NCBI GenBank assembly: GCA_022482735.1
Contig: JAKVOO010000001.1
Location: 838,837-902,836 of the forward strand
Reading direction: 5' to 3'
Length of the DNA: 64,000 bases
Source of the DNA: Bacilli bacterium
GTDB lineage: Bacteria > Bacillota_I > Bacilli_A > RFN20 > CAG-826
Shown: one piece after another, positions 43,868-62,699 of the stretch
How positions within the stretch are numbered: the stretch's first letter is position 1
How the letters are laid out: every line of letters begins with the position of its first letter
Translations under genes and position numbers: made by a program
Notes under the pieces: generated by a model
The model's input: only the letters and a program-made list of their open reading frames with translations
Database searches by the model: none
What the model was told of the DNA's origin: nothing

Positions 43868-45254
43868 ATGTTTTCTAAAGATTTTATTTGGGGAGCAGCA
43901 ACATCAGCGGCTCAAATTGAAGGTGCAGAATACGAAGACGGAAAAACGTCATCCATTTGGGATATAGCTTCTAGAATGAATGATGGGCGCTTTTCTCGCT
44001 TTCAAAAAACTCCGCTATCGTCATGCGATCATTACCATCGTTTTATAGAAGATGTTGCCATTATGAAAAAAATAGGATTAAAAGCTTATCGTTTTTCCAT
44101 AAGTTGGACGCGATTGATGAAAGAAGATATGAATACAATCAACCCCAAAGGTCTTCTTTTTTATAATCGGCTAATTGATGCCTTGCTTGAAGCCGGCATT
44201 GAGCCATTTATTACTATTTTCCATTGGGATTATCCACAAAGTCTTCTTGATCAAGGTGGATGGCAAAATGATAAATCTGTGACTTGGTTTGCCGAATACG
44301 CTAAAACAGTTGTCGAGCTTTTTTCCGATAGAGTTAAAAAATTCATAACTATTAACGAACCTGAGTGTTTTGTAAATCTCGGCTATTTAGATAAAAGGCA
44401 CGCCCCTTACTACCAGTTGCCTGAAGATGCTGTCTTCAAAATTGCTCACAATGTTTTAAAAGCTAATGGCTTAGCGACGATTTTAATGCGGCAAGTTGCA
44501 AAACAAAAAATTGAAATTGGACAGGCTTTTGCTTTAACTGGAGCTATTCCATTTTCTGAAGATGATAAAGATATTAATGCGGCAAAACATTGCTTTTTTA
44601 ATCATCCAGATAGTTCTTTTTGGGGTACTTGGTTTCTTGATACCATTATGAATGGGGAATATGACAAAAAGCGTCTGGCAAAAATTTCAATATCACCTGA
44701 TGTTCTAGATAAAGATATGAGAATAATTCACCAGACACCAGATTTTATAGGTTTCAATATGTACTCGGGAACACTGACAAAGCACTTAGGCGAAAATGAT
44801 TATCAACGCATGCCTGATCCCAATTGATTCCGACTATACAATGATGGACATTCCTATTGCCCCTTCTTGCCTATATTGGGCGGCAAGATTTCTATATGAA
44901 AAATATCATCTTCCAATCTACATAATGGAAAATGGCGTCGCAATCACCGATAGTCCCGATGAGAACGGCGACATAGACGATCCAGCACGTATAAATTTCA
45001 TTCGCGAGCACTTGATACACTTAAGTCGTGCATTAAAAGAAAAAATTGATGTTCGCGGTTACTTCTACTGGTCACTTTTAGACAATTATGAATGGGCCCA
45101 TGGCTATAGCAGAAGATTTGGGCTGGTCAGAGTTAACTTTGAAAATTATAAAAGGACTTTAAAAAAATCAGCTTACTGGTATGCTTCATTGATAAAAAGT
45201 AATGGCGAAATTTTAGAAAAGGAAAGGGTCGATAAAAATTATGGAAACTTATAA
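43868..45254 (+). CDS. GH1-family beta-glucosidase/6-phospho-beta-glucosidase. A frameshift near 44796..44827 splits it into two ORFs.
   Basis: N-terminus 'FIWGAATSAAQIEGA'. Acid/base 'FITINEPECF'. The nucleophile 'YIMENGVA' lies in the second ORF. The C-terminus 'WSLLDNYEWAHGYSRRFGLV' is classic GH1. Confidence 0.85.
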
Positions 45255-46505
45255 AACAAGTGTGCTTGTAGTAGGCGGAGGGCCTTCTGGTTTAGCGGCA
45301 GCTGTAAGTTGCTCAAGACTTGGAATAAAAACAACTTTAATTGAGCGCTTTGGTATTGTAGGAGGAAATCTTACTTTAGGACATGTTGCTCCTATTATGG
45401 GGGATGTTAGTCATGGAACAATCGTTGATGAAGTAATTAATTTGCTTAACCTAAAATGGGATGTCGCCCATGATATTGAAAAGACAAAAATTGCTCTTTC
45501 AAATTGGCTGGCTAACGAAAAAGTGGATTTATTTCTTCAAACAGTTGCCATTGGAACAATTATGGAAGGAAATACGATTAAAGGGGTTATTGCAAACAAT
45601 CCCTCCTGGTAACTTTCAAATTGATGCGGACATTATTATCGATGCAACCGGCAATGGTTCAGTTGCCGCTTTTGCTGGAGCTGACTATGAAATCGGTCGT
45701 ACAAAAGGATGGACTTACGCAACCTACAACCATTATGTTTACCATAAGTAATATCAGTCCCCTACAAAAAATTGAATGCCGGCACGAGGAAGATGATACC
45801 ATTCTTCCTGAAGGCAGTTACCTTGGTCTTTGTCGAAAAGCATCACTTACTGGCGAATTGCCAAAGAATGTCAACATCGTTCGTTTGTATCGCTGCGAAA
45901 AGCCAGACGAAAGAGTTGTAAATGCCACACAAGCCAATGGAGTTAATGGCTTAGATGGTCAGCAATTAGCTAAAGCAGAAAATATTTTGCGCCAACAAGA
46001 AGAAATGATTTTTAATTTTTTGAAAAAGCATGTCCCGGGATTTGAAGATTCCCAAATCAAAAAAAGCGCTGATACCGTCGGAGTAAGGGAGACAAGACGA
46101 ATTATTGGAGAATACCAACTTACCGACATTGATTTAATGAATGGGCAAAGATTTAATGATGTTATGGTTCACAAGGCAAATTTCGCCATTGATATCCATA
46201 ATCCATCTGGCCCTGGGCAATCTGAATCTGATGGATGTCCTCGCCACCCTAAACCATATGACATCCCCTATCGCTGCTTTGTCCCTAAAAAAATTGACAA
46301 TCTATTTGTAACAGGACGCTGCATATCCGGAACTCACGAAGCTCACGCTAGTTATCGAGTAATGCGCATATGTATGGCTATGGGGCAGTCAATCGGTACT
46401 GCAGCCGGACTTTGTTTAAAGGAAAAACAAATTCCAAGAACTTTAGATTATAGAAAAGTTCAAGAAGCGTTAATGGCTGTTGGCGTTGATTTATTCAGCG
46501 AATAA
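45241..46505 (+). CDS. FAD-dependent oxidoreductase (FAD_oxidored/PF12831-like). Two frameshifts (~45600 and ~45720) split it into three ORFs.
   Basis: Rossmann motif 'VLVVGGGPSGLAAAV'. The middle ORF has 'IDADIIIDATGNGSVAAFAGADYEIGR'. A long C-terminal domain follows. Confidence 0.75.
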
Positions 46506-53595: not shown

Positions 53596-55401
53596 CTATT
53601 TCTTACTGTCAAAATGTTTTACAAAATCAATAAAATCAGCAAATTGAAGAGGCTTAGCGTAGTAGTAGCCTTGGACCATTTGACACTGTTTTCCGCGTAG
53701 AAATTCCACCTGTTCAAGGGTCTCAGCTCCTTCGGCAACAAGCTTAAGATTGAAAAGATGGGCCAAAGAAATAATCGCTTCCGCTACTTTTCCGTCATCG
53801 TCCTTTGGATAATCTTTAATAAAACTACGATCGATTTTTAATGTATCAATTGGCATATCACGAATATATCCAAGCGATGAGTATCCCGTGCCAAAATCAT
53901 CCAAGGAAATTGTAACGCCTAATTCTCGGATTTTACTAAGATAAGCAATCATTTGCGCTCGGTCATCAATCAAGATGCTCTCCGTAATTTCTAACTCTAA
54001 CTGTTTGGCATCAATATGCGACTTGCCGAGTACATCAATAAGCGTTTCATATAGACGATTTTGCACGTATTGAGAGGCGGTTGTATTAACCGAAAATTGT
54101 AGATGCCTCTTATTAAAAATACTATTGATAATAACTAGATCACTTACCGCTTTACGGATGACAAAAGCGCCGATATCATTCATTAATCCTAAGCGCTCCG
54201 CTACTGGTATAAAACGCATTGGTGATACTAATCCTAAAGTCGGTGATCTCCAACGTAGCAACCCTTCAGCTCCCACGACTATGTTATTTTGAATGTCGAC
54301 CTTGGGCTGATAAAAAAGTTCAAATTCATTGTTCTTGATGCCGTTAACTAACTGTTCTTTGATTTTTTCGTCTTCAGTTATTTTTTGCGATAACTCTGGA
54401 CGATAGAAGATATAATCACGATTGCTATCTTCATTTATTTTCGTCGCCGCAATTTGGGCACTCGTCAATAAAGTGACAGCATTAGCTCCATCTTCCGGAA
54501 AGCGGCTGATGCCGCATTTAAAAGTAAAAAGAAGACTTTCTTCATTACTAAAGTTAATCTCCCTTTCTTCTAGACGAATAATTTCCTCCACAAAAGCTGT
54601 AATAGCACTTATTTCACTCAAAGGTGAAATAATGACAAGCGCATCATCGCTAATTTGCGCGAATGATTCTGAAGGCATATTCATTTGCGTGGCTAGATGC
54701 TCGATAAAACTGACAATACCTCGATAGTACTTCTCCTGTGACTGCGTAATTTGAAGATAACTATAGTTGCTAACCCGTAAGAAAATAATTGAAAATGGTT
54801 TCTTATCATCAATGAGCGCATTCATCCGCTGAATCATCGCATTTTGATTAAGAAGATTAGTACTTGGTACATAATCTCTTAAAAAAGTTATTTGCTCTTC
54901 GGTTTTACGAACAATAGAAAGATCTTCATGGGTACTAACATAACTAAGCCCAATACCAAACAATCCTCGAATCGCATAAATACTAATACGTTTAGGATAA
55001 AGCGTTCCGTCTTTTCTGCGGTCCCACATCTCGCCCGTCCAAAATCCCTTGTTGTGGATATCATTCCACATGTTGTGATAAAAGGTGGAGTCGTGGCGGC
55101 CACTTGATAAAATACGTGGATTCTTTCTTTTTAATTCCTTAAATGTGTAGCCGGTTAAGTCTTCCATCGCTGGGTTCACATAAAAAATTCGTCGATGTCG
55201 ATTGGTGGCAATCACCCCAATTTTTAACGACGAAACGGTAAACCGAGCTAATTTACGACGATGACTGACGTAGGAGATAATAACCGATAATGCCAATAAA
55301 CCGAGTGCTAAAAATAAGATAACTACAAGTGTTATTAATTCAATGTCATTTAAAGATAAAACTGCGATAAATAGTTTAGTCCCGATAAAGAGTTGTTGCA
55401 T
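53596..55401 (-). CDS. Membrane-anchored PAS / degenerate-GGDEF / EAL protein, a likely c-di-GMP phosphodiesterase.
   Basis: N-terminal TM and a PAS region. EAL motifs 'ELEITESIL', 'DDFGTGYSSLGYI', 'KIDRSF', 'VAEGAET'. No GG(D/E)EF motif in the cyclase-like domain. Confidence 0.8.
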   Translation of the reverse strand: MQQLFIGTKLFIAVLSLNDIELITLVVILFLALGLLALSVIISYVSHRRKLARFTVSSLKIGVIATNRHRRIFYVNPAMEDLTGYTFKELKRKNPRILSSGRHDSTFYHNMWNDIHNKGFWTGEMWDRRKDGTLYPKRISIYAIRGLFGIGLSYVSTHEDLSIVRKTEEQITFLRDYVPSTNLLNQNAMIQRMNALIDDKKPFSIIFLRVSNYSYLQITQSQEKYYRGIVSFIEHLATQMNMPSESFAQISDDALVIISPLSEISAITAFVEEIIRLEEREINFSNEESLLFTFKCGISRFPEDGANAVTLLTSAQIAATKINEDSNRDYIFYRPELSQKITEDEKIKEQLVNGIKNNEFELFYQPKVDIQNNIVVGAEGLLRWRSPTLGLVSPMRFIPVAERLGLMNDIGAFVIRKAVSDLVIINSIFNKRHLQFSVNTTASQYVQNRLYETLIDVLGKSHIDAKQLELEITESILIDDRAQMIAYLSKIRELGVTISLDDFGTGYSSLGYIRDMPIDTLKIDRSFIKDYPKDDDGKVAEAIISLAHLFNLKLVAEGAETLEQVEFLRGKQCQMVQGYYYAKPLQFADFIDFVKHFDSKK

Positions 55402-55886
55402 AAAAGACTCCTTCGTTTATTTGAACGCCCCCAACGCCAAATTGATAAAATTATTTGTTGATATGACTGGTTTCACTCCAAGTTTCATCCTGACAAACAA
55501 TATGATAGCATAAATGACTAAAAGTTAGAAACAGCCGATGAAAACTGATAAATTTTCGTCTTAACAAAAAGGTTGTTTTCGAATAATGACAACCAATAGC
55601 AAATATCCTTCTTTAATGCCATCAGTAAGCTCGTATTTATAAATTATCAAAATATTTTCTAAGAAGTTATTCGCTACCTTATAATATATGAAATTTTTTC
55701 CTAAAATAAAAAGAGAATGCTCTTATTTAATAAATTATGTTTTTACTTAATTTATAAGTTGTTTAGAGCCAATTGCTCGCATTTTTAATCGACAATTATG
55801 TATAATCATCCTAGATGTTTTTTGTTTTAATGCCTTTTGGTCCATTTAATCAAGTTGGTTAGATGAGATACCTTTTGGGGGAACTA

Positions 55887-56786
55887 ATGAAAGAAAAAAT
55901 CGAAGACTATGCCAAAATTTTGGATACAAGTTACGATGGAGTCTATTTCGTTGATAAGGACCGAAAGATTTTATATTGGAATAAAGAGGCGGAAAAAATT
56001 TCCGGTTACGGAGAAAAGGAAGTCGTTAACTACCACTGCTTTGACAATATTTTAAACCATGTTGATGAGGAAGGGGTATGCCTATGTACGACGGCCTGTC
56101 CTTTGTCCAAAACCATGAGTGATGGTATTCGCCGAGAAGCTAAAGTGTATCTTCATCATAAAAAGGGGCATCGCGTCGCAGTCACTATTCGCACAGTTCC
56201 TTTGATTGTAAATGGTGAGATTGTCGGTGCTTTTGAGTTTTTCGTTCATAATAATGATAACCTTCCCATGTCCAAGATTGACGAACTTACTTATTTGGCT
56301 CTGCATGACCAATTGACTGGTATTCCTAATCGACGATATATTGATTCAACTCTCAAGAATTTTATCCGACAATATAACGATCTAAGTCTTTCCTTTTCCG
56401 TTATGATGATCGATATCGATCACTTTAAATTGATTAATGATACTTATGGCCATGATATGGGCGATAAAGTACTAAAAATGGTTGCCACCACGCTTTCGGA
56501 TATATTCACTGAGCCGACCTTTATCGGTCGGTGGGGCGGAGAGGAATTTATGGTCATATCCGCTTGCCATTCTCCCCATGAATTAGAAGAAATTGCCAAT
56601 CATGCTATTACTTTAGTGAATAACTCCAGTTTTGTGGACCATGGCAATAATATATCGGTGACCATTCTCCATTGGGATTACCATTGCCCAAAAAGACGAT
56701 GATGAAGAGGCAATCACTCGACGAGCTGATCAAGGAATGTATGAAATCAAAGCGCAAGGCCGAAATCGGTTTACATTTATAAAATA
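55887..56786 (+). CDS. PAS-GGDEF diguanylate cyclase. A frameshift near ~56670 means the last ~29 aa are read in another frame.
   Basis: 'RWGGEEFMVISA' GGEEF motif. The shifted frame gives the canonical C-terminus 'GITIAQKDDDEEAITRRADQGMYEIKAQGRNRFTFIK*'. Start set at the ATG with a GGGGGA RBS (MKEKIEDY...). Confidence 0.75.
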
Positions 56787-56818
56787 AAGGACACACTAAT
56801 GTGTGCCCTTTTTTATTT
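56786..56818. terminator. Rho-independent terminator between convergent genes, with T/A runs on both flanks.
   Basis: AGGACACAC-TAAT-GTGTGCCCT stem-loop followed by TTTTTTATTTATTAT. Confidence 0.65.
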
Positions 56819-56819
56819 A

Positions 56820-58271
56820 TTATAGGGCTTCGGCTCCAAAGTCCTCAACGAACTTGGCTCTTAATCTCTCTTGCCAATCGCCATTTTCCTCTAAACGTCC
56901 AATAAAGAAACGCATAACTTTTGGCTCTTCAACAAAGTGGAGTCCTCCGATAAGATGACGATTTTCGAAAAGCCAATTTAAGCGATCAGCAATAAAAGTT
57001 ATTTGCGAAAGCGTAAATACTCGTCGGGGGAGCGCAAGACGAACAAGTTCCATGCTGGCGGGATGTTCGCTGCCATCGGCATTTCGTGTTTCTGATATCG
57101 TCCCCCGTTCCATCCCGCGGGCGCCACTGACGATAAATATTGCCGCAGCTAATGCTCCCGCCGGATATTCTTCCGATTTAACGTGAGGAATGAACGCCCG
57201 GGCATTAAGATGCAGTCCTAATCCGCCAAATGGAGTGATAACCGGAATGCCATTTTTTTGGAGCATTTGTCCAAAAGCCGCGATAAACTCTGGACCCTGG
57301 GATATCATGTCGATATCTAGTGTTTCCTCAATGCCTATAGCCAAGGCTTCCATTTCACGAACGGACATACCTCCATAAGTAAGAAAACCTTCAAATAATG
57401 GAATAAGGTTTTTCATCTGATCAAAGAGTTCCTTGTGAGGAGTTACGATACCCCCACCGCGCGCACTACCGAGTTTTCGTCCGGAGAAATAGATGATATC
57501 GGCTGTCTTAGCTATCGCTAAAACAATTTCGTGGATGCTCATATTTTTTGCTTGGGGCTCACGGGTTTTAATAAAGAAAAGATTATCCGATAAAAGGGAA
57601 GCGTCAATTACCAACATGATTTTGTTTTGGCGACAAAACGCACCAACTTCTTCAATATTTTTCAAGGAAACTGGTTGCCCGCCAATGAGGTTTGTTCCCA
57701 TTTCTAATCGCACAAAGGGGATCCTATCTTTACCGACACGATCAATAAGCGCCTTTAATTTTTCGATATCCATATCACCCTTAAATGGATTATCGCTTTC
57801 TGGAATAATCGCTTTGTCAAAAAAACATTCCTCGACGCTTCCTTTGCACTCCATGATATGTGCTTTGGTCGTGGTAAAATGATAGTTCATTGGAACGATA
57901 TCATCGGGTTTGACAAATACTTTAGCCAGTATATGCTCACAAGCCCTTCCCTGATGGGCGGGAAGGAAAAACTTCATACCAAAGAAGTCCTGCAAAGCTT
58001 TCTCCAAACGAAAGAAAGTCTCACTTCCCGCGTAAGAATCATCGGCGATGGACATCGAGGCTATTTGCCGATCACTCATCGCATTAGTTCCGCTGTCGGT
58101 CAACATATCCAGAAAAACATCCCGATTTCTTAAAAGAAAAGTGTTATTCCCGGCTTCCTGAATAGCCTGTAATCGCTCATCAATGGGAAGTAAATTTAAC
58201 TTTTGAACAACTCTGACTTTGTGCATTTCTAATGGAAATGGCTCGGCTTTAAATCTAGCAATGTGGAACAT
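56820..58271 (-). CDS. Beta-eliminating lyase of the tryptophanase/tyrosine phenol-lyase family. It sits behind a Tyr-type T-box leader, so it is possibly a tyrosine phenol-lyase.
   Basis: Colinear with E. coli TnaA: 'NTFLLRNRDVFLDMLTDSGTNAMSDRQ', 'GGQPVSL', 'FIKTREPQ', 'FLTYGGM', 'EPKVMRFFIGRLEE'. 483 aa. TnaA versus TPL cannot be decided from the sequence alone. Confidence 0.85.
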   Translation of the reverse strand: MFHIARFKAEPFPLEMHKVRVVQKLNLLPIDERLQAIQEAGNNTFLLRNRDVFLDMLTDSGTNAMSDRQIASMSIADDSYAGSETFFRLEKALQDFFGMKFFLPAHQGRACEHILAKVFVKPDDIVPMNYHFTTTKAHIMECKGSVEECFFDKAIIPESDNPFKGDMDIEKLKALIDRVGKDRIPFVRLEMGTNLIGGQPVSLKNIEEVGAFCRQNKIMLVIDASLLSDNLFFIKTREPQAKNMSIHEIVLAIAKTADIIYFSGRKLGSARGGGIVTPHKELFDQMKNLIPLFEGFLTYGGMSVREMEALAIGIEETLDIDMISQGPEFIAAFGQMLQKNGIPVITPFGGLGLHLNARAFIPHVKSEEYPAGALAAAIFIVSGARGMERGTISETRNADGSEHPASMELVRLALPRRVFTLSQITFIADRLNWLFENRHLIGGLHFVEEPKVMRFFIGRLEENGDWQERLRAKFVEDFGAEAL

Positions 58272-58289
58272 ATAGTTCTCCTTTCTAAA

Positions 58290-58568
58290 CGGGAGAAAAT
58301 AAAAAACGATTTTCTCCTTGCTTTCACAGGGACGAAAATCGTTCAGATATTCCGCGGTACCACCCTAATTATGGCCATTGCCATCACTTATCGAGTCCAA
58401 CAACTCTAGTCGTTTTAACGGACAACTACCGGGAGTGCCTACTAGTTTCAGCCTCCGACTCCGAAGTGTATATTTTGTTTCGATCTAATTTCCATTTGCA
58501 CCGCGACTGGACTCTCTAAATTTAGATTTGAAACTTTTCTCTTCATCAACGTCTTTTAATATTTGGTT
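58290..58568 (-). ncRNA. T-box riboswitch leader with a complete architecture. The specifier reads as UAC (Tyr) and the antiterminator bulge as UGGU. It is followed by an intrinsic terminator and then the RBS of the lyase gene.
   Basis: Promoter TTGACT (58602..58597), 16-bp spacer, TAGAAT (58580..58575). Stem I has GATGAAGAG and AGAGAG elements. Specifier loop '...AAAAUAUAC-A-CUUCGG' (58470..58468), parallel to the glyQS 'AAGGCA-CUUCG'. F-box CCGTTA (58421..58416). T-box AATTAGGGTGGTACCGCGG (58370..58352). Terminator AACGATTTTCGTCC...GGAGAAAATCGTT + TTTTTTATTTT (58344..58296). Confidence 0.85.
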
Positions 58569-58625
58569 AACTATATTCTATCGGCAGCAGTTAATAAGTC
58601 AATGTTTTTCGTAATAAATTACTTA

Positions 58626-60482
58626 CTATTCACTCATCGCATCAAATTGGCTGTTGTACAAATCGGCGTAAAAACCATTTTTACTTAACAATTCAACATG
58701 GGTGCCGCTTTCGACTACATTTCCATCCTTCAAAACTAATATCAAATCAGCATTTTTAATAGTCGACAAGCGATGGGCAATGACAAAACTCGTCCGCCCA
58801 TGCATAAGTCGATCCATTGCTTTTTGAATAATAATTTCGGTTCTGGTATCAACTGAACTTGTAGCCTCATCTAAGATTAATAAAGGGGCATCAACAATCA
58901 TCGCCCGGGCGATGGTCATCAATTGTTTTTGGCCGGCGGAAAGATTTAATTTATCAGTCAAAATGGTCTCATAACCGTTAGGAAGTGTGCGAATGAAGAA
59001 ATCAATACCCGCAACTTTACAGGCTTCCTTGACCATCTCGTCAGTTACCCCTTTGCGATTATAGGCAATATTTTCCTTAATAGTTCCTTCAAAGAGCCAC
59101 GTGTCCTGAAGAACCATACAGAATTGGTCATGAACATTTTCCCGCGGAACATCCAAAGTGGAAGTCCCATCAATTTTGATTTGGCCATCTTCAACTTCAT
59201 AAAAGCGCATTAGAAGATTGACTAGTGTAGTTTTACCCGCACCGGTCGGACCGACAATCGCTATCTTCTGCCCAGCTTTAGCTTTCATTGAAAAGTCGGG
59301 AATAATAATTTTGTCACTATCATACCCAAATTTGACGTGATTAAATTCAACATCACCCTTTACATATTGCAAGGTTTTTGTTTTATCAAACTCAGCATTT
59401 AACTCTGGCTCATCAAGAAAACTAAACACTCTTTCGGAAGCGGCCGCTCCCGATTGAATACGATTCGCGGCTTGAGCAAATTGCGACATTGGCTGAGTGA
59501 ATAAACGGATATATAGCATGAATGAAGCAATTACTCCAAATTGAATTTTTCCATTGATCGCCAACAGAGCCCCGACTATGGAAACCACAACATAACCAAA
59601 GTTACCGATAAATTGCATAATCGGCATCATTAGTCCAGAGAGAAATTGCGACCTCCAAGCATTGATAAATAAATCATCATTCATGCGATTAAAACTTTTT
59701 AGCGCAGCCTTTTCTCCATTATAGGCCTTGACTATGGTATGCCCGGAGTATACTTCTTCTATATGACCGTTTATCGCTCCAAGTCCGTTTTGCTGATTGA
59801 GAAAGTACTTTTGTGATTTTTTAATGATGATTATCATTAATAAGAAACCGATTAAAGTGGACGCCACCGCCGCAAAAGCCATAATATAATTGGTAAGAAA
59901 CATCATAATAAGTGAACCAAAAAACATGGTTATGGCACTAACCAAGGTCCCTAAACTTTGGTTTAAAGTTTGGGCAATCGTATCCACATCATTGGTTACC
60001 CGACTTAAGACATCTCCGTAAGAATTATTATCAAAATACTTGAGAGGAAGGCGATTAATTTTATGATCAATGTCCCGTCTTAGTTTATAAGAGAGGCGTT
60101 GGGCAATCGTCGCCATAATATAACTTTGAATATAATTGAAAATAAAGCCTAGACCATAGATAACAATAAGAAAGATAGATAGTTTTTTGATTTCGGGTAA
60201 ATTGATGGTTCCGGTGATTCCATTGACAATATAATTGGTGATGTCACCAATTTTTTGGGGACCGATAATATTAAGTATAGTGCCGGCTATAGCTAAGATA
60301 ATGGCAATCGCGCCAAAAATTACAAAACTTTTACCATAGGCAAATAGTTTGCTGACGGAGCCTTTAAAATCTTTAGCCTTTTCTCCAGGAGCAAAACCAC
60401 CATGACCAACCCGTCCTCCCATACCCATCTTCGGATTATTCTTATAAGTGGCACTTACCGCTTTTTCTTTACTATCACTCAT
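58626..60482 (-). CDS. ABC transporter ATP-binding/permease (type I exporter half-transporter; heterodimer partner of 60475..62244).
   Basis: Six-TM domain plus an NBD with Walker A 'GPTGAGKTT', signature 'LSAGQKQL' and Walker B 'ILDEATS'. Confidence 0.9.
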   Translation of the reverse strand: MSDSKEKAVSATYKNNPKMGMGGRVGHGGFAPGEKAKDFKGSVSKLFAYGKSFVIFGAIAIILAIAGTILNIIGPQKIGDITNYIVNGITGTINLPEIKKLSIFLIVIYGLGFIFNYIQSYIMATIAQRLSYKLRRDIDHKINRLPLKYFDNNSYGDVLSRVTNDVDTIAQTLNQSLGTLVSAITMFFGSLIMMFLTNYIMAFAAVASTLIGFLLMIIIIKKSQKYFLNQQNGLGAINGHIEEVYSGHTIVKAYNGEKAALKSFNRMNDDLFINAWRSQFLSGLMMPIMQFIGNFGYVVVSIVGALLAINGKIQFGVIASFMLYIRLFTQPMSQFAQAANRIQSGAAASERVFSFLDEPELNAEFDKTKTLQYVKGDVEFNHVKFGYDSDKIIIPDFSMKAKAGQKIAIVGPTGAGKTTLVNLLMRFYEVEDGQIKIDGTSTLDVPRENVHDQFCMVLQDTWLFEGTIKENIAYNRKGVTDEMVKEACKVAGIDFFIRTLPNGYETILTDKLNLSAGQKQLMTIARAMIVDAPLLILDEATSSVDTRTEIIIQKAMDRLMHGRTSFVIAHRLSTIKNADLILVLKDGNVVESGTHVELLSKNGFYADLYNSQFDAMSE

Positions 60483-62244
60483 GATTTAATTCCTCCTGGG
60501 TAAGCTGAGATAAAGCTATCTCGCGATAGACTTCACAGTTTGTTAGCAAATCTTGGTGCTTTCCATAGCCGACAATCTTGCCCTCATCAAGAACAAGAAT
60601 ATGGTCGGCATCCTTAATGGTTCCAATTCTTTGAGCAACGATAATACTTGTCACTCCTTGCGAATACTTGCGTAACGCCTCGCGCAACAGTTTATCAGTC
60701 TTATAATCCAACGCCGAGAAGGAATCATCAAACACATAGATTTCCGGCTTTTTATAGATGGCACGAGCGATTGAAATACGCTGCTTTTGCCCTCCGCTAA
60801 AATTGGATCCTCCCTGCGCAACTTGTGCTAACTCCTGCTTAGGAAGTTGATGCACAAAATCTTCCGCTTGAGCAATTTTTAATGCTTGAAGGATATCTTC
60901 CTTTTCCTGCTCCGCACTACTATCCGTTTTCGAACCATAGGTAACATTGGAAGCGATGGTTCCGCTGAACAGAATCGCTTTCTGCGATACATAGCCAATT
61001 TTTTGATGAAGGTTTTCCTGCGAATATTCTTTGACGTTAATCCCGTCAATAAGAATCTCTCCTTGCGACACATCATAGAAGCGAGGCAATAGATTAACAA
61101 GAGTACTCTTTCCACTTCCGGTAGCACCGATAATGGCTAAACTTTCTCCTTGATGAAGGGTGAAGCTAATATTTTCCAAAACATTTTCCACGGCATCAGG
61201 GTAGGCAAAGAATACATTGCGAAACTCAACATCACCGCTCGAATCGCTAACTAAATCATTATTTTTGCCATCAATAATCCGCGGTTTGGTATCTAAGACT
61301 GCCATAATCCGTTTGGCCGAAACACTCGCTCGCGGTAGCATAATGAATATCATCGTCAACATCATAAAAGACATAATAACCTGCATAGCGTAAGAGGAGA
61401 AAACTATCATATCGGAAAACACTTGAATACGATTGCTAAAGGAAGCGTTATTAATAAGAATAGCGCCGATCCAATATATGGCCACCGATAAACCAGAAGC
61501 AATGATTGTCATTGTCGGTTGAATGATGGCCATTAACCGGTTGGTAAAAAGATTAGTTTTTGTAAGTTTGATATTGGCACTATCAAATTTATTCTCCTGA
61601 TAGTCTTCAGCATTATAGGCTCTAATCACTCGTAAACCCGATAAATTTTCGCGCGTGACGCGGTTCAAACTATCGGTCAAATTTTGGATAATTTTAAACT
61701 TTGGCACGGCAAAGATAATGATAACGCTAAGCATTGATACAAGAATTACAACTCCAATTGCCGTTGATAGAGTCCATTCCCAACTCTTGTTATATATTTT
61801 GATAATGGCCCATACCGCCATGATTGGCGCACGAACAATAAACTGAAGTCCCATGCCAATAAACATTTGAATTTGTGTAATATCATTAGTGGAGCGAGTG
61901 ATAAGACTGGCCGTTGAGAAATTATTTATTTCTTCCATCGAAAAAGAAATAGTTTTGTTGAACACTTCTTTTCGTAACCGCATTGCCATTGTCGCGGCAA
62001 CAAATGAAGATAAAAACCCAATTGCTACCGCTGCAATCACACTTCCGATTGCACATAAGAGCATGTATCCTCCTTGAATGAGAATATCCTGCATTGCGCT
62101 TCCTTCGGTCTCAACGAGGGTAGTAATTTCCTGCATATACTCTGGTAGTTTTAAATCGAGCCAGACTTGAGCAACAATAAAAACAATACTTATGAGAATG
62201 GCCAACCATTCTTTTATTTTTAAATACTTAAAAATTCTTACCAT
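60475..62244 (-). CDS. ABC transporter ATP-binding/permease (exporter half-transporter).
   Basis: TM domain plus an NBD with 'GATGSGKST', 'FSGGQKQRISIARA' and 'VFDDSFSALD'. Overlaps its partner by 8 nt. Confidence 0.9.
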   Translation of the reverse strand: MVRIFKYLKIKEWLAILISIVFIVAQVWLDLKLPEYMQEITTLVETEGSAMQDILIQGGYMLLCAIGSVIAAVAIGFLSSFVAATMAMRLRKEVFNKTISFSMEEINNFSTASLITRSTNDITQIQMFIGMGLQFIVRAPIMAVWAIIKIYNKSWEWTLSTAIGVVILVSMLSVIIIFAVPKFKIIQNLTDSLNRVTRENLSGLRVIRAYNAEDYQENKFDSANIKLTKTNLFTNRLMAIIQPTMTIIASGLSVAIYWIGAILINNASFSNRIQVFSDMIVFSSYAMQVIMSFMMLTMIFIMLPRASVSAKRIMAVLDTKPRIIDGKNNDLVSDSSGDVEFRNVFFAYPDAVENVLENISFTLHQGESLAIIGATGSGKSTLVNLLPRFYDVSQGEILIDGINVKEYSQENLHQKIGYVSQKAILFSGTIASNVTYGSKTDSSAEQEKEDILQALKIAQAEDFVHQLPKQELAQVAQGGSNFSGGQKQRISIARAIYKKPEIYVFDDSFSALDYKTDKLLREALRKYSQGVTSIIVAQRIGTIKDADHILVLDEGKIVGYGKHQDLLTNCEVYREIALSQLTQEELNHE

Positions 62245-62273
62245 AAAGGTCTCCTATAAATTTCAAAACGACT

Positions 62274-62699
62274 TTATTCCAAATTAGCCTTAATCTTATC
62301 GATAGTAGCGAAGAAACTATTCATTTCTTCATCGCTAATTCCCTTGCGCATACTGCCTTCAATCCCGTGAAGAATCTTTTCAATTAATAGATGCTTATCC
62401 CGTGCCTTCTGTGTGAGGACAATCTGCTTTTGGCGGGCATCATTTTTTGAAGGTATGCGTTCAATCATTCCATTACTCTCCATCAAAGCCAACATTCGAG
62501 AAATAGTTGAACGCCGCATCGAGAATTTTTTTTCAAAATCCCGTTGGTATACTTCTTGGTCATGATTACTTGCAATATAGTGAATAATCAATCCATGAAC
62601 TCCCGTTGTTTTATGAAAGTCTATAGCGGCTTCACTAGCGACTCTCCTTTTAACCAGATTGCCAATATTTCGCATTTCTAATCCAATTGATCGTTCCAT
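62274..62699 (-). CDS. MarR-family transcriptional regulator.
   Basis: wHTH 'RRSTISRMLALMESNGMIERIPS'. 141 aa. First gene of the exporter operon. Confidence 0.85.
   Translation of the reverse strand: MERSIGLEMRNIGNLVKRRVASEAAIDFHKTTGVHGLIIHYIASNHDQEVYQRDFEKKFSMRRSTISRMLALMESNGMIERIPSKNDARQKQIVLTQKARDKHLLIEKILHGIEGSMRKGISDEEMNSFFATIDKIKANLE

Follow-up and report, generated by a model that had tools for sequence, protein, structure and literature searches.

The window analysed here, a stretch of 64,000 nucleotides (64 kb) on contig JAKVOO010000001.1 of a Bacilli bacterium, carries on its minus strand a gene for a 483-aa pyridoxal phosphate (PLP)-dependent beta-eliminating lyase, and directly upstream of this gene, whose ATG start codon is at position 58271, lies a T-box leader RNA. 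The lyase belongs to the family of tyrosine phenol-lyase (TPL) and tryptophanase (TnaA). An initial annotation, made from the sequence alone, had read the leader as a complete T-box with a tyrosine specifier and had cautioned against naming the gene tryptophanase by homology alone. Our analysis bears out both points, finds the same pairing of leader and lyase in 27 further contexts, and places the enzyme in a third subfamily of the TPL/TnaA family, for which we propose, more tentatively, a role in tyrosine supply.

A tyrosine T-box ahead of a lyase gene

Scanning the whole window against Rfam 15 returned a single match, to the T-box family (RF00230), which covers the full covariance model (positions 1-219) and scores 98 bits (E 2.5e-20), above the gathering score of 93. 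The elements listed in the initial annotation - a sigma-A promoter, Stem I with its GA and AGAGA motifs, the F-box CCGUUA and the T-box sequence - could all be located on the minus strand (Table 1), and the position of the predicted promoter is kept in the close leaders of loci L042 and L049. The length of the leader needs amending: 350 nt had been given, but it is the intergenic gap that measures 354 nt, and of this about 300 nt are transcribed as leader.

The 3' part of the leader can adopt two alternative folds. The terminator hairpin has a predicted free energy of -18.1 kcal/mol (z-score -5.45), and none of 200 shuffled sequences was equally stable. Its 5' arm has bases 58337-58327 in common with the antiterminator (3' arm), which makes the two structures mutually exclusive, as had been proposed; the antiterminator is competent to form but, folded alone, reaches only -9.6 kcal/mol, and as the stronger terminator draws on the same bases, the switch would be OFF by default. 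The features of the T-box class - Stem I motifs, an antiterminator with a UGGN bulge and a terminator of the transcriptional type - are all present, and we have very little doubt that the element upstream of the lyase gene is a functional tyrosine switch.

Which amino acid is sensed depends on the register in which the specifier loop is read. In the window this loop ends ...AAAAUA-UAC-A, its final A touching the closing helix, and the covariance-model alignment places UAC, the tyrosine codon named in the initial annotation, at the specifier position. UAC lies one base 5' of the Stem I closing helix in 26/26 full-length orthologous leaders. In 24 aligned leaders the base between codon and helix is mostly A (18 leaders), otherwise G or C (3 each), and the bases ahead of the codon differ as well (AUA, GAA, AAA, AAU, AGU); U-A-C itself is invariant although the alignment averages only 37% column identity, and GGUGGUA.C.CG is also invariant. 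The register is fixed by the covarying helices that bracket the specifier loop. In the 24 leaders these two helices show 95-98% pairing, and each of their 6 pairs has compensatory changes. Overall, pairing extends to 85.8% of cells and drops to about 50% if the partners are shifted by one column; the covariation score of 0.433 (0.250 in shuffles) was reached by 0 of 500 shuffles. An alignment of six leaders contains 19 covarying pairs. The codon position agrees with the convention of TBDB, and two-codon families favour specifiers ending in C (PMC7778990).

Read in the +1 register, the loop would present ACN, a threonine codon, and a tRNA other than tRNA-Tyr would be sensed. Every leader does offer a threonine codon in this frame (ACA, ACG or ACC). 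However, the invariant U of UAC would then fall outside the codon and go unexplained, and with a varying third position three different classes of threonine isoacceptor would be required; the standard layout of codon, one base and helix (PMC7778990) yields UAC, the preferred tyrosine specifier, in all 26 leaders, and the enzyme encoded downstream carries tyrosine-specific residues. We have rejected the threonine reading because of the unexplained U and the three isoacceptors, and consider it extremely improbable.

A search for tRNA genes in the 64-kb window found none. A relative (L042), whose lyase is 80% identical and preceded by the same T-box, encodes a tRNA-Tyr(GUA) ending in ...CUCC-A-CCA, which matches both the UAC specifier and the UGGU bulge. 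That bulge was correctly recognised in the initial annotation, but the accompanying argument from the discriminator base is weak, as A73 is the commonest discriminator and UGGU could also wobble-pair with G73. Judged from the leader sequences and the tRNA-Tyr of this relative, the switch is specific for tRNA-Tyr.

The pairing of T-box and lyase recurs. Orthologous loci were drawn from GTDB genomes, from the contigs of the closest database homologs and, through the alignment of the lyase clade, from 80 metagenomic loci, in which T-boxes were counted with a uniform nhmmer profile and motif. A T-box stands upstream of the ortholog in 28 loci, that is, in the window and 27 distinct contexts: 22 of the 80 metagenomic loci and five others (L001, L042/43, L044-47, L049/50 and L051/52). 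The T-box-bearing loci range in GC content from 0.30 to 0.64, and their members are scattered over the protein tree. Within 6 kb of canonical TPL, TnaA or more distant homologs (loci L005-L041) no T-box was found; these loci include Firmicutes, for example Saccharofermentanales, Eubacteriales, Halobacteroidaceae, Peptoniphilus, Anaerococcus and Lachnospiraceae.

The architecture of the leaders varies. That of L102 (1115-1451) is without the Stem II and IIA/B region and has a short, glyQS-like layout; the leaders of L083, L090, L092 and L094 have an additional hairpin inserted in Stem I, and in that of L077 (2440-3000) about 100 GC-rich nt are inserted behind it. In one subgroup the T-box sequence takes the variant form GGUGGUAAC(A/G)CG. 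In L110 (~1060-1275) and L119 (~2770-2990) some 120 extra nt separate the T-box terminator from the start codon and include a GC-rich hairpin whose structure is conserved (CCCGCGGCGGCGGG and CCCACCCGUGGUGGG). At the same place in L134 (2778-2850), between terminator and lyase start, Rfam reports a tRNA-like match of 54 bits that ARAGORN does not call, perhaps a degenerate tRNA or an element resembling tRNA.

Table 1. Features of the lyase locus (window positions) and of other loci (positions in the locus named)
Feature	Position	Strand	Basis or detail
Predicted sigma-70/sigma-A type promoter	58575..58602	-	TTGACT-16-TAGAAT; consensus match 10/12
-35 element TTGACT	58602-58597	-	followed by 16-nt spacer
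-10 element TAGAAT	58580-58575	-	
T-box leader RNA, RF00230	58325..58558	-	Rfam; complete model
Stem I	58459..58552	-	Rfam alignment; base helix, AG bulge, distal loop, specifier loop
GA/kink-turn region UGAUGA	58548-58543	-	Rfam alignment
Stem I base helix	58544-58541 with 58466-58463	-	GAAG pairs with CUUC
AG bulge AGAGA	58517-58513	-	Rfam alignment
Specifier codon UAC (Tyr)	58470-58468	-	A at 58467, then closing helix CUUC 58466-58463
F-box CCGUUA, Stem IIA/B region	58421-58416	-	Rfam alignment; kept in two leader alignments
T-box sequence AAUUAGGGUGGUACCGCGG	58370-58352	-	Rfam alignment
Antiterminator helix	58367-58327	-	7-nt bulge UGGUACC
UGGU in antiterminator bulge	58362-58359	-	complementary to tRNA 3' end ACCA
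Intrinsic terminator, hairpin	58344-58304	-	
Intrinsic terminator, U-tract	58303-58296	-	
Ribosome-binding site AAAGGAGAA	58276..58284	-	ends 4 nt ahead of ATG; GGAG aligned in other leaders
Coding sequence, 483 aa, PLP-dependent beta-eliminating lyase, TPL-like	56820..58271	-	open reading frame (ORF) and profile matches
Intrinsic terminator closing the lyase transcript	56786..56811	-	11-bp stem, U-rich tail; 9 nt past stop codon
marR-like gene and two ABC exporter genes	58629-62699	-	
PAS-GGDEF gene and PAS-EAL gene	53599-56702		PAS-GGDEF gene on +, convergent with lyase
DUF554 gene, L094	1917-2738		
DUF554 gene, L057	696-1388		
DUF554 gene, L086	4577-5272		
DUF554 gene, L056	2858-3559		
DUF554 gene, L122	1675-2349		
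DUF554 gene, L131	2161-2850		
T-box, L001			Rfam, 126.8 bits
T-box, L042			Rfam, 89.8 bits
T-box, L044 and L046			Rfam, 108.3 bits
T-box, L049			Rfam, 99.4 bits
T-box, L051			Rfam, 116.1 bits
T-box, L058			Rfam, 107.4 bits
T-box, L089			Rfam, 139.7 bits
T-box, L134			Rfam, 101.5 bits

The lyase and its clade

In Pfam the 483-aa protein matches Beta_elim_lyase, and it scores 565.4 bits, above the cutoff of 285, against NF009709 (PRK13238, 'tryptophanase'), a profile pitched at the broad TPL/TnaA level. It is this match, which does not define the substrate, that leads to the label 'tryptophanase' among its relatives; database annotations give either that name or 'tyrosine phenol-lyase'. The more specific equivalog profiles all score below their cutoffs: 436.4 bits against 720.7 for TPL (TIGR02618), and 306 against 825.8 and 380 against 750 for TnaA (TIGR02617 and NF053783 respectively). 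The best sequence matches in the PDB are TPLs (373 bits), ahead of TnaAs (~245-299 bits). The window protein is 40% identical to Citrobacter freundii TPL and 32% to Escherichia coli TnaA, while TPL and TnaA share 43%. A neighbour-joining tree joins the 88 members of the clade into a long-branch sister group of canonical TPL, and when clustered at 50% identity the clade reduces to essentially one representative cluster.

The predicted fold agrees with this placement. An AlphaFold2 model of the window protein (predicted template modelling score, pTM, 0.81) finds TPLs as its top PDB matches in Foldseek, with TM-scores of 0.85-0.87 by query and 0.89-0.93 by target, the best being 0.87/0.92. Specific to the clade is a C-terminal tail of 22 residues with a modelled helix at 466-478, predicted with confidence (residues 461-480, block pLDDT 93 and 92).

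Active-site residues of the 88 clade members were compared with those of TPLs and TnaAs, in the numbering of C. freundii TPL. The catalytic and PLP-binding core common to TPL and TnaA (F36, Y71, R100, F123, N185, D214, K257 and R404) is kept in the clade, with Y71, R100, N185, D214, K257 and R404 in 88/88 members. At the specificity positions T124, M379, R381 and F448 the clade is identical to TPL, where TnaA has D, V, I and H; T124 and R381 occur in 88/88 members and F448 in 87/87, so that these four and the six core residues are conserved in 87-88 of 88. F449 is likewise conserved between the clade and TPL. The residues that make E. coli TnaA specific for indole (D137, I396 and H463) are T, R and F in the window protein. 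We take K257 to form the Schiff base, Y71 to be the general acid and F448 to strain the substrate, with R381 and T124 binding the phenol hydroxyl and R404 the carboxylate. TPL-type T124/R381/F448 in place of the TnaA-type D/I/H supports the view that this is not a tryptophanase, in keeping with the caution of the initial annotation; neither a TnaA signature nor a UGG specifier was found. By these residues the phenol/tyrosine pocket is predicted to be intact.

The periphery of the active site appears remodelled. In all 88 members positions 217 and 343 are leucine (R and H respectively in TPL and TnaA), position 256 is R (K in both), position 262 is R or K (N in TPL and most TnaA loci, P in E. 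coli TnaA) and position 288 is F (M in TPL, F in TnaA); position 69 is D in 87/88 (E in both). The window protein itself has L217, L343, R256, R262, D69 and F288. In TPL, E69, G52 and N262' make up the monovalent-cation site and R217 lies near O3' of PLP; the cation site of the clade is possibly remodelled too. PDB entry titles indicate that the Y71F, D214A, M379A and F448A/H variants of TPL have been studied; our search found no literature on TPL Arg217.

The suggestion that the enzyme is a TPL therefore holds for the pocket and not for the whole: with 436 bits against a cutoff of 720.7, and without R217 and H343, it is not a bona fide TPL. On the sequence comparisons the enzyme is neither TnaA nor canonical TPL but a member of a third, TPL-like subfamily of the TPL/TnaA family, and we found no description of a subfamily with the L217/L343/R256/R262/D69 signature in the available literature.

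Clade loci span GC contents from 0.27 to 0.71, which suggests a wide phylogenetic spread or horizontal transfer. One of them, L004, comes from a 'Rikenellaceae' metagenome-assembled genome (MAG). A protein 80% identical to that of the window (P0003) is likewise assigned at NCBI to a 'Bacteroidia bacterium' MAG, a label that could reflect mis-binning or recent transfer. Our searches also returned proteins of ~850-930 aa (P0121-P0125, P0127, P0130 and others) that carry a tandem pair of TPL/TnaA-like domains, with ~33-37% identity to the query in each.

The protein is also poor in tyrosine. It has 5 tyrosines in 483 aa (1.04%), the lowest content among window ORFs above 150 aa and well under the 4.5% median of 52 window ORFs; each of the five occupies a position that at least 82% of the clade conserves, and at 9 of the 22 tyrosine positions of TPL the protein has phenylalanine. 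Mean tyrosine content is 2.8% in the clade, against 4.8% in TPL, 4.0% in TnaA and 3.4% in flanking proteins. Within the clade, T-box-bearing members have fewer tyrosines than the others (median 12 versus 15; Mann-Whitney p = 3e-6, kinship ignored). Avoidance of tyrosine is expected where a protein has to be synthesised despite a shortage of that amino acid, and the depletion would fit as an independent signature of starvation.

A possible role in tyrosine supply

The locus would operate as follows. By default the strong terminator would form and the lyase gene would be off. As uncharged tRNA-Tyr(GUA) accumulates, its anticodon would pair with the UAC specifier in Stem I and its free ACCA 3' end with the UGGU bulge, stabilising the weaker antiterminator and allowing the monocistronic lyase gene to be transcribed. 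Under a transcriptional T-box with specificity for tRNA-Tyr, the lyase gene is expected to be expressed when tRNA-Tyr is uncharged, and an enzyme made only when tyrosine is limiting points to tyrosine supply as its role. TPL works reversibly and can, in addition, form tyrosine from serine and phenol. We infer that the lyase would run this chemistry in the synthetic direction, making tyrosine from phenol, pyruvate and ammonium or, with a more favourable donor, from phenol and serine; it would thus act as a phenol-salvaging 'tyrosine synthase'. Tyrosine formation is the parsimonious role because tyrosine T-boxes control tyrosine-supplying functions and the phenol/tyrosine pocket is apparently intact. 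Conservation of the T-box across lineages, its absence at canonical TPL and TnaA loci and the depletion of tyrosine all strengthen the case for synthesis.

Our assurance differs between parts of this proposal. We incline, if not strongly, to the explanation as a whole, in which a tRNA-Tyr T-box gates a third-subfamily lyase that supplies tyrosine by working in the synthetic direction. That the tyrosine would be derived from phenol is, to us, evenly poised. The further idea that the third subfamily is a dedicated phenol-dependent tyrosine synthase (using phenol and serine, or pyruvate and ammonium), its periphery tuned for synthesis by L217, L343 and a cation site apparently filled by the side chains of D69, R256 and R/K262, is offered tentatively and falls somewhat short of probable.

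Several observations count against a role in tyrosine supply. About two-thirds of clade members, including the only cultured hosts (Lysinibacillus), are without a T-box, so regulation by tyrosine is not universal in the clade. Neither Rfam (E <= 0.1) nor the nhmmer profile detected a T-box in Lysinibacillus (L002/L003), L004 or L053, and Lysinibacillus and L053/L056 are without one though close to T-box-bearing relatives; the upstream region in Lysinibacillus is a plain promoter behind a terminator. Some of the T-box-less members presumably sit in phyla that do not use T-boxes. The replacement of R217 and H343 by leucine in 88/88 members means that the chemistry may differ from that of TPL, and synthesis from pyruvate and ammonium requires high concentrations of phenol and ammonium. 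Nor does gene context help: Pfam assignment of 108 flanking ORFs and all-vs-all clustering of 327 revealed no conserved operon partner for phenol or aromatic metabolism. The host of L051, moreover, has the shikimate pathway at least in part, with chorismate synthase, a fused shikimate dehydrogenase/kinase and a dehydroquinase of type II encoded at 1-2582, 3-6 kb upstream of its lyase gene. The statistics on tyrosine content treat related sequences as independent, ignoring kinship.

The replaced residues lend themselves to another account, in which the enzyme catalyses a different PLP reaction with tyrosine or a tyrosine-sparing compound as its product, such as beta-replacement on O-acyl- or O-phospho-serine or cysteine, or release of tyrosine from a beta-substituted conjugate. 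R217L, H343L, K256R, N262R/K and E69D affect positions invariant in TPL and TnaA, and loss of R217 and H343 would alter specificity; the extra C-terminal helix, the score below the TPL equivalog cutoff and a distance from TPL as great as that between TPL and TnaA point the same way. Yet Y71, K257, R381, T124, F448 and R404, which we take to be needed for the C-C chemistry of TPL, are retained, and the predicted fold nearly coincides with that of TPL (TM-scores as above). This account also overlaps with the one we prefer, as the reaction of serine with phenol is itself a beta-replacement. Overall we judge a different reaction unlikely, though it is the alternative we take most seriously.

The T-box senses uncharged tRNA whatever the cause, and the lyase might instead protect tyrosyl-tRNA synthetase from a competing tyrosine analogue or antimetabolite (m-tyrosine, 3-substituted tyrosines, L-DOPA or azatyrosine-like compounds) that leaves tRNA-Tyr uncharged and so induces the gene, detoxifying it by beta-elimination. 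TPL accepts many ring-substituted tyrosines, and T124 and R381 are kept while M288F, R217L and H343L reshape the surroundings of the active site. Such a role is, however, known for no member of a T-box regulon (PMC2494555), the census of flanking ORFs revealed no conserved linked resistance or export genes, and strong depletion of tyrosine fits a true scarcity of the amino acid; we think detoxification improbable. Slightly less credible still is an ordinary catabolic TPL, converting tyrosine to phenol, pyruvate and ammonia, whose T-box would serve carbon and nitrogen scavenging in general starvation or be a relic. The closest characterised relatives are indeed catabolic TPLs, the TPL-type specificity residues are present, and relatives are annotated as 'tyrosine phenol-lyase' or 'tryptophanase', but to destroy tyrosine exactly when tRNA-Tyr is uncharged would be self-defeating. 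Moreover, the canonical TPL and TnaA genes examined never carry a T-box, the protein avoids tyrosine, and a T-box conserved with covariation in 28 loci is not a relic.

Ecology may be relevant to the supply of tyrosine from phenol. Judged by contig and sample names, the habitats of clade members are anaerobic digesters, sludge and fermenters and the guts of termite, hare, toad and human (the human-gut contigs being L115 and L129). Phenolics and ammonium are plausibly abundant in such habitats.

Gene surroundings and comparison with known systems

In the window the lyase gene is followed by its own terminator, which makes the unit monocistronic. A marR-like gene and two ABC exporter genes end 24 nt ahead of the -35 element of the T-box promoter; the stretch in between showed no terminator, so read-through from the exporter operon would also be gated by the T-box terminator. 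Just downstream of the lyase are genes for PAS-GGDEF and PAS-EAL proteins of cyclic-di-GMP turnover, with no evident link to the lyase. Annotated genes of the 64-kb window encode glycoside hydrolases, sugar ABC transporters and GGDEF/EAL proteins, and none is an aromatic amino-acid gene. Several genes look split by frameshifts (737-2468 on the minus strand, 43868-45251 and 45241-46502 on the plus strand), either through assembly indel errors or because they are pseudogenes: a GH2 glycosidase is spread over overlapping ORFs (737-1669 and 1623-2468), a GH1 ORF spans only profile positions 5-304 of 453 with an overlapping ORF after it, and a FAD_oxidored ORF spans only profile positions 167-416 with a short ORF ahead.

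Across the orthologous loci the only recurrent neighbour is a DUF554 membrane protein, at six unrelated loci (Table 1); DAHP synthase occurs at two. In L094 the DUF554 gene starts at zero gap behind the lyase, in the same T-box-controlled transcript. The DUF554 protein might be a transporter connected with the pathway; the literature searched yielded nothing on its function.

These findings bear on how such genes are read. Thousands of clade genes in metagenomes are named 'tryptophanase' or 'tyrosine phenol-lyase' and are neither by residue signature, and the regulatory evidence suggests that the enzymes may run in the opposite physiological direction. If the clade consumes phenol, the estimates that gut and uremic-toxin research draws from gene counts of how much phenol and indole microbes produce (phenyl sulfate, indoxyl sulfate) would be biased, and anaerobes living where phenol is plentiful, in digesters and in termite and human guts, would be consuming phenol through genes counted as phenol or indole producers. 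The hosts would then possess an unrecognised one-enzyme route of tyrosine salvage, the tyrosine counterpart of indole salvage of the TrpB type. TPL is used industrially to make tyrosine and L-DOPA from phenols, and the clade is a candidate catalyst for synthesis of tyrosine or L-DOPA-type compounds. It is also a natural scaffold of the TPL family without R217 and H343 and with an apparently remodelled cation site, on which the function of those residues can be tested. More generally, where homology alone mis-names an enzyme subfamily, the specifier of a T-box can be used to assign its function.

The lyase gene would be a new member of the tyrosine T-box regulon. A TPL/TnaA-family gene under such control was not found in the available literature, a search that did not extend to Vitreschak et al. 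2008, RegPrecise or the TBDB entries, and neither Wels et al. 2008 (PMC2494555) nor the TBDB paper (PMC7778990) mentions one. With the founding member of the T-box class, the Bacillus subtilis tyrS leader, the leader described here shares the RF00230 family, the UAC specifier, the pairing of the UGGU bulge with A73-CCA and the logic of attenuation; it differs in that it precedes a lyase gene and not that of tyrosyl-tRNA synthetase, and its Stem I distal loop is slightly shortened, with a score barely over threshold (98 versus 93). Known targets of tyrosine T-boxes include tyrS, an NhaC-family transporter and, in the Bacillus cereus group, a tyrosine biosynthesis operon and phenylalanine-4-hydroxylase (pah), an alternative tyrosine-forming enzyme (Wels et al. 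2008, PMC2494555). The last is the closest regulatory analogy, a tyrosine T-box acting on a single-enzyme route to tyrosine from a pre-formed aromatic compound; there, however, a pterin-dependent hydroxylase acts on phenylalanine, whereas here a PLP lyase would act on phenol in a putative tyrosine-forming role.

As regards the enzyme, characterised TPLs (EC 4.1.99.2; C. freundii, Erwinia herbicola) have the same fold, 40% full-length identity and the same catalytic and specificity residues, from which the clade is set apart by R217L, H343L, K256R, N262R/K, E69D, M288F, the C-terminal helix, its few tyrosines and T-box control. Enterobacterial tpl is induced through TyrR when tyrosine is present. 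TnaA shares superfamily and fold at 32% identity and differs in its tryptophan-specific residues; unlike TnaA, the lyase gene has no tnaC-type leader. If the proposed role is right, there is also a functional analogy with TrpB, a PLP enzyme that joins an aromatic ring to a serine-derived aminoacrylate and whose expression is likewise amino-acid-controlled, trp operons being under T-box control in many Firmicutes; the folds differ (type II in TrpB, type I in the lyase), and use of serine by the clade is only proposed. Taken together, these comparisons suggest that known RNA and enzyme families have here entered a new regulatory pairing, with a new enzyme subfamily that probably works in the reverse physiological direction.

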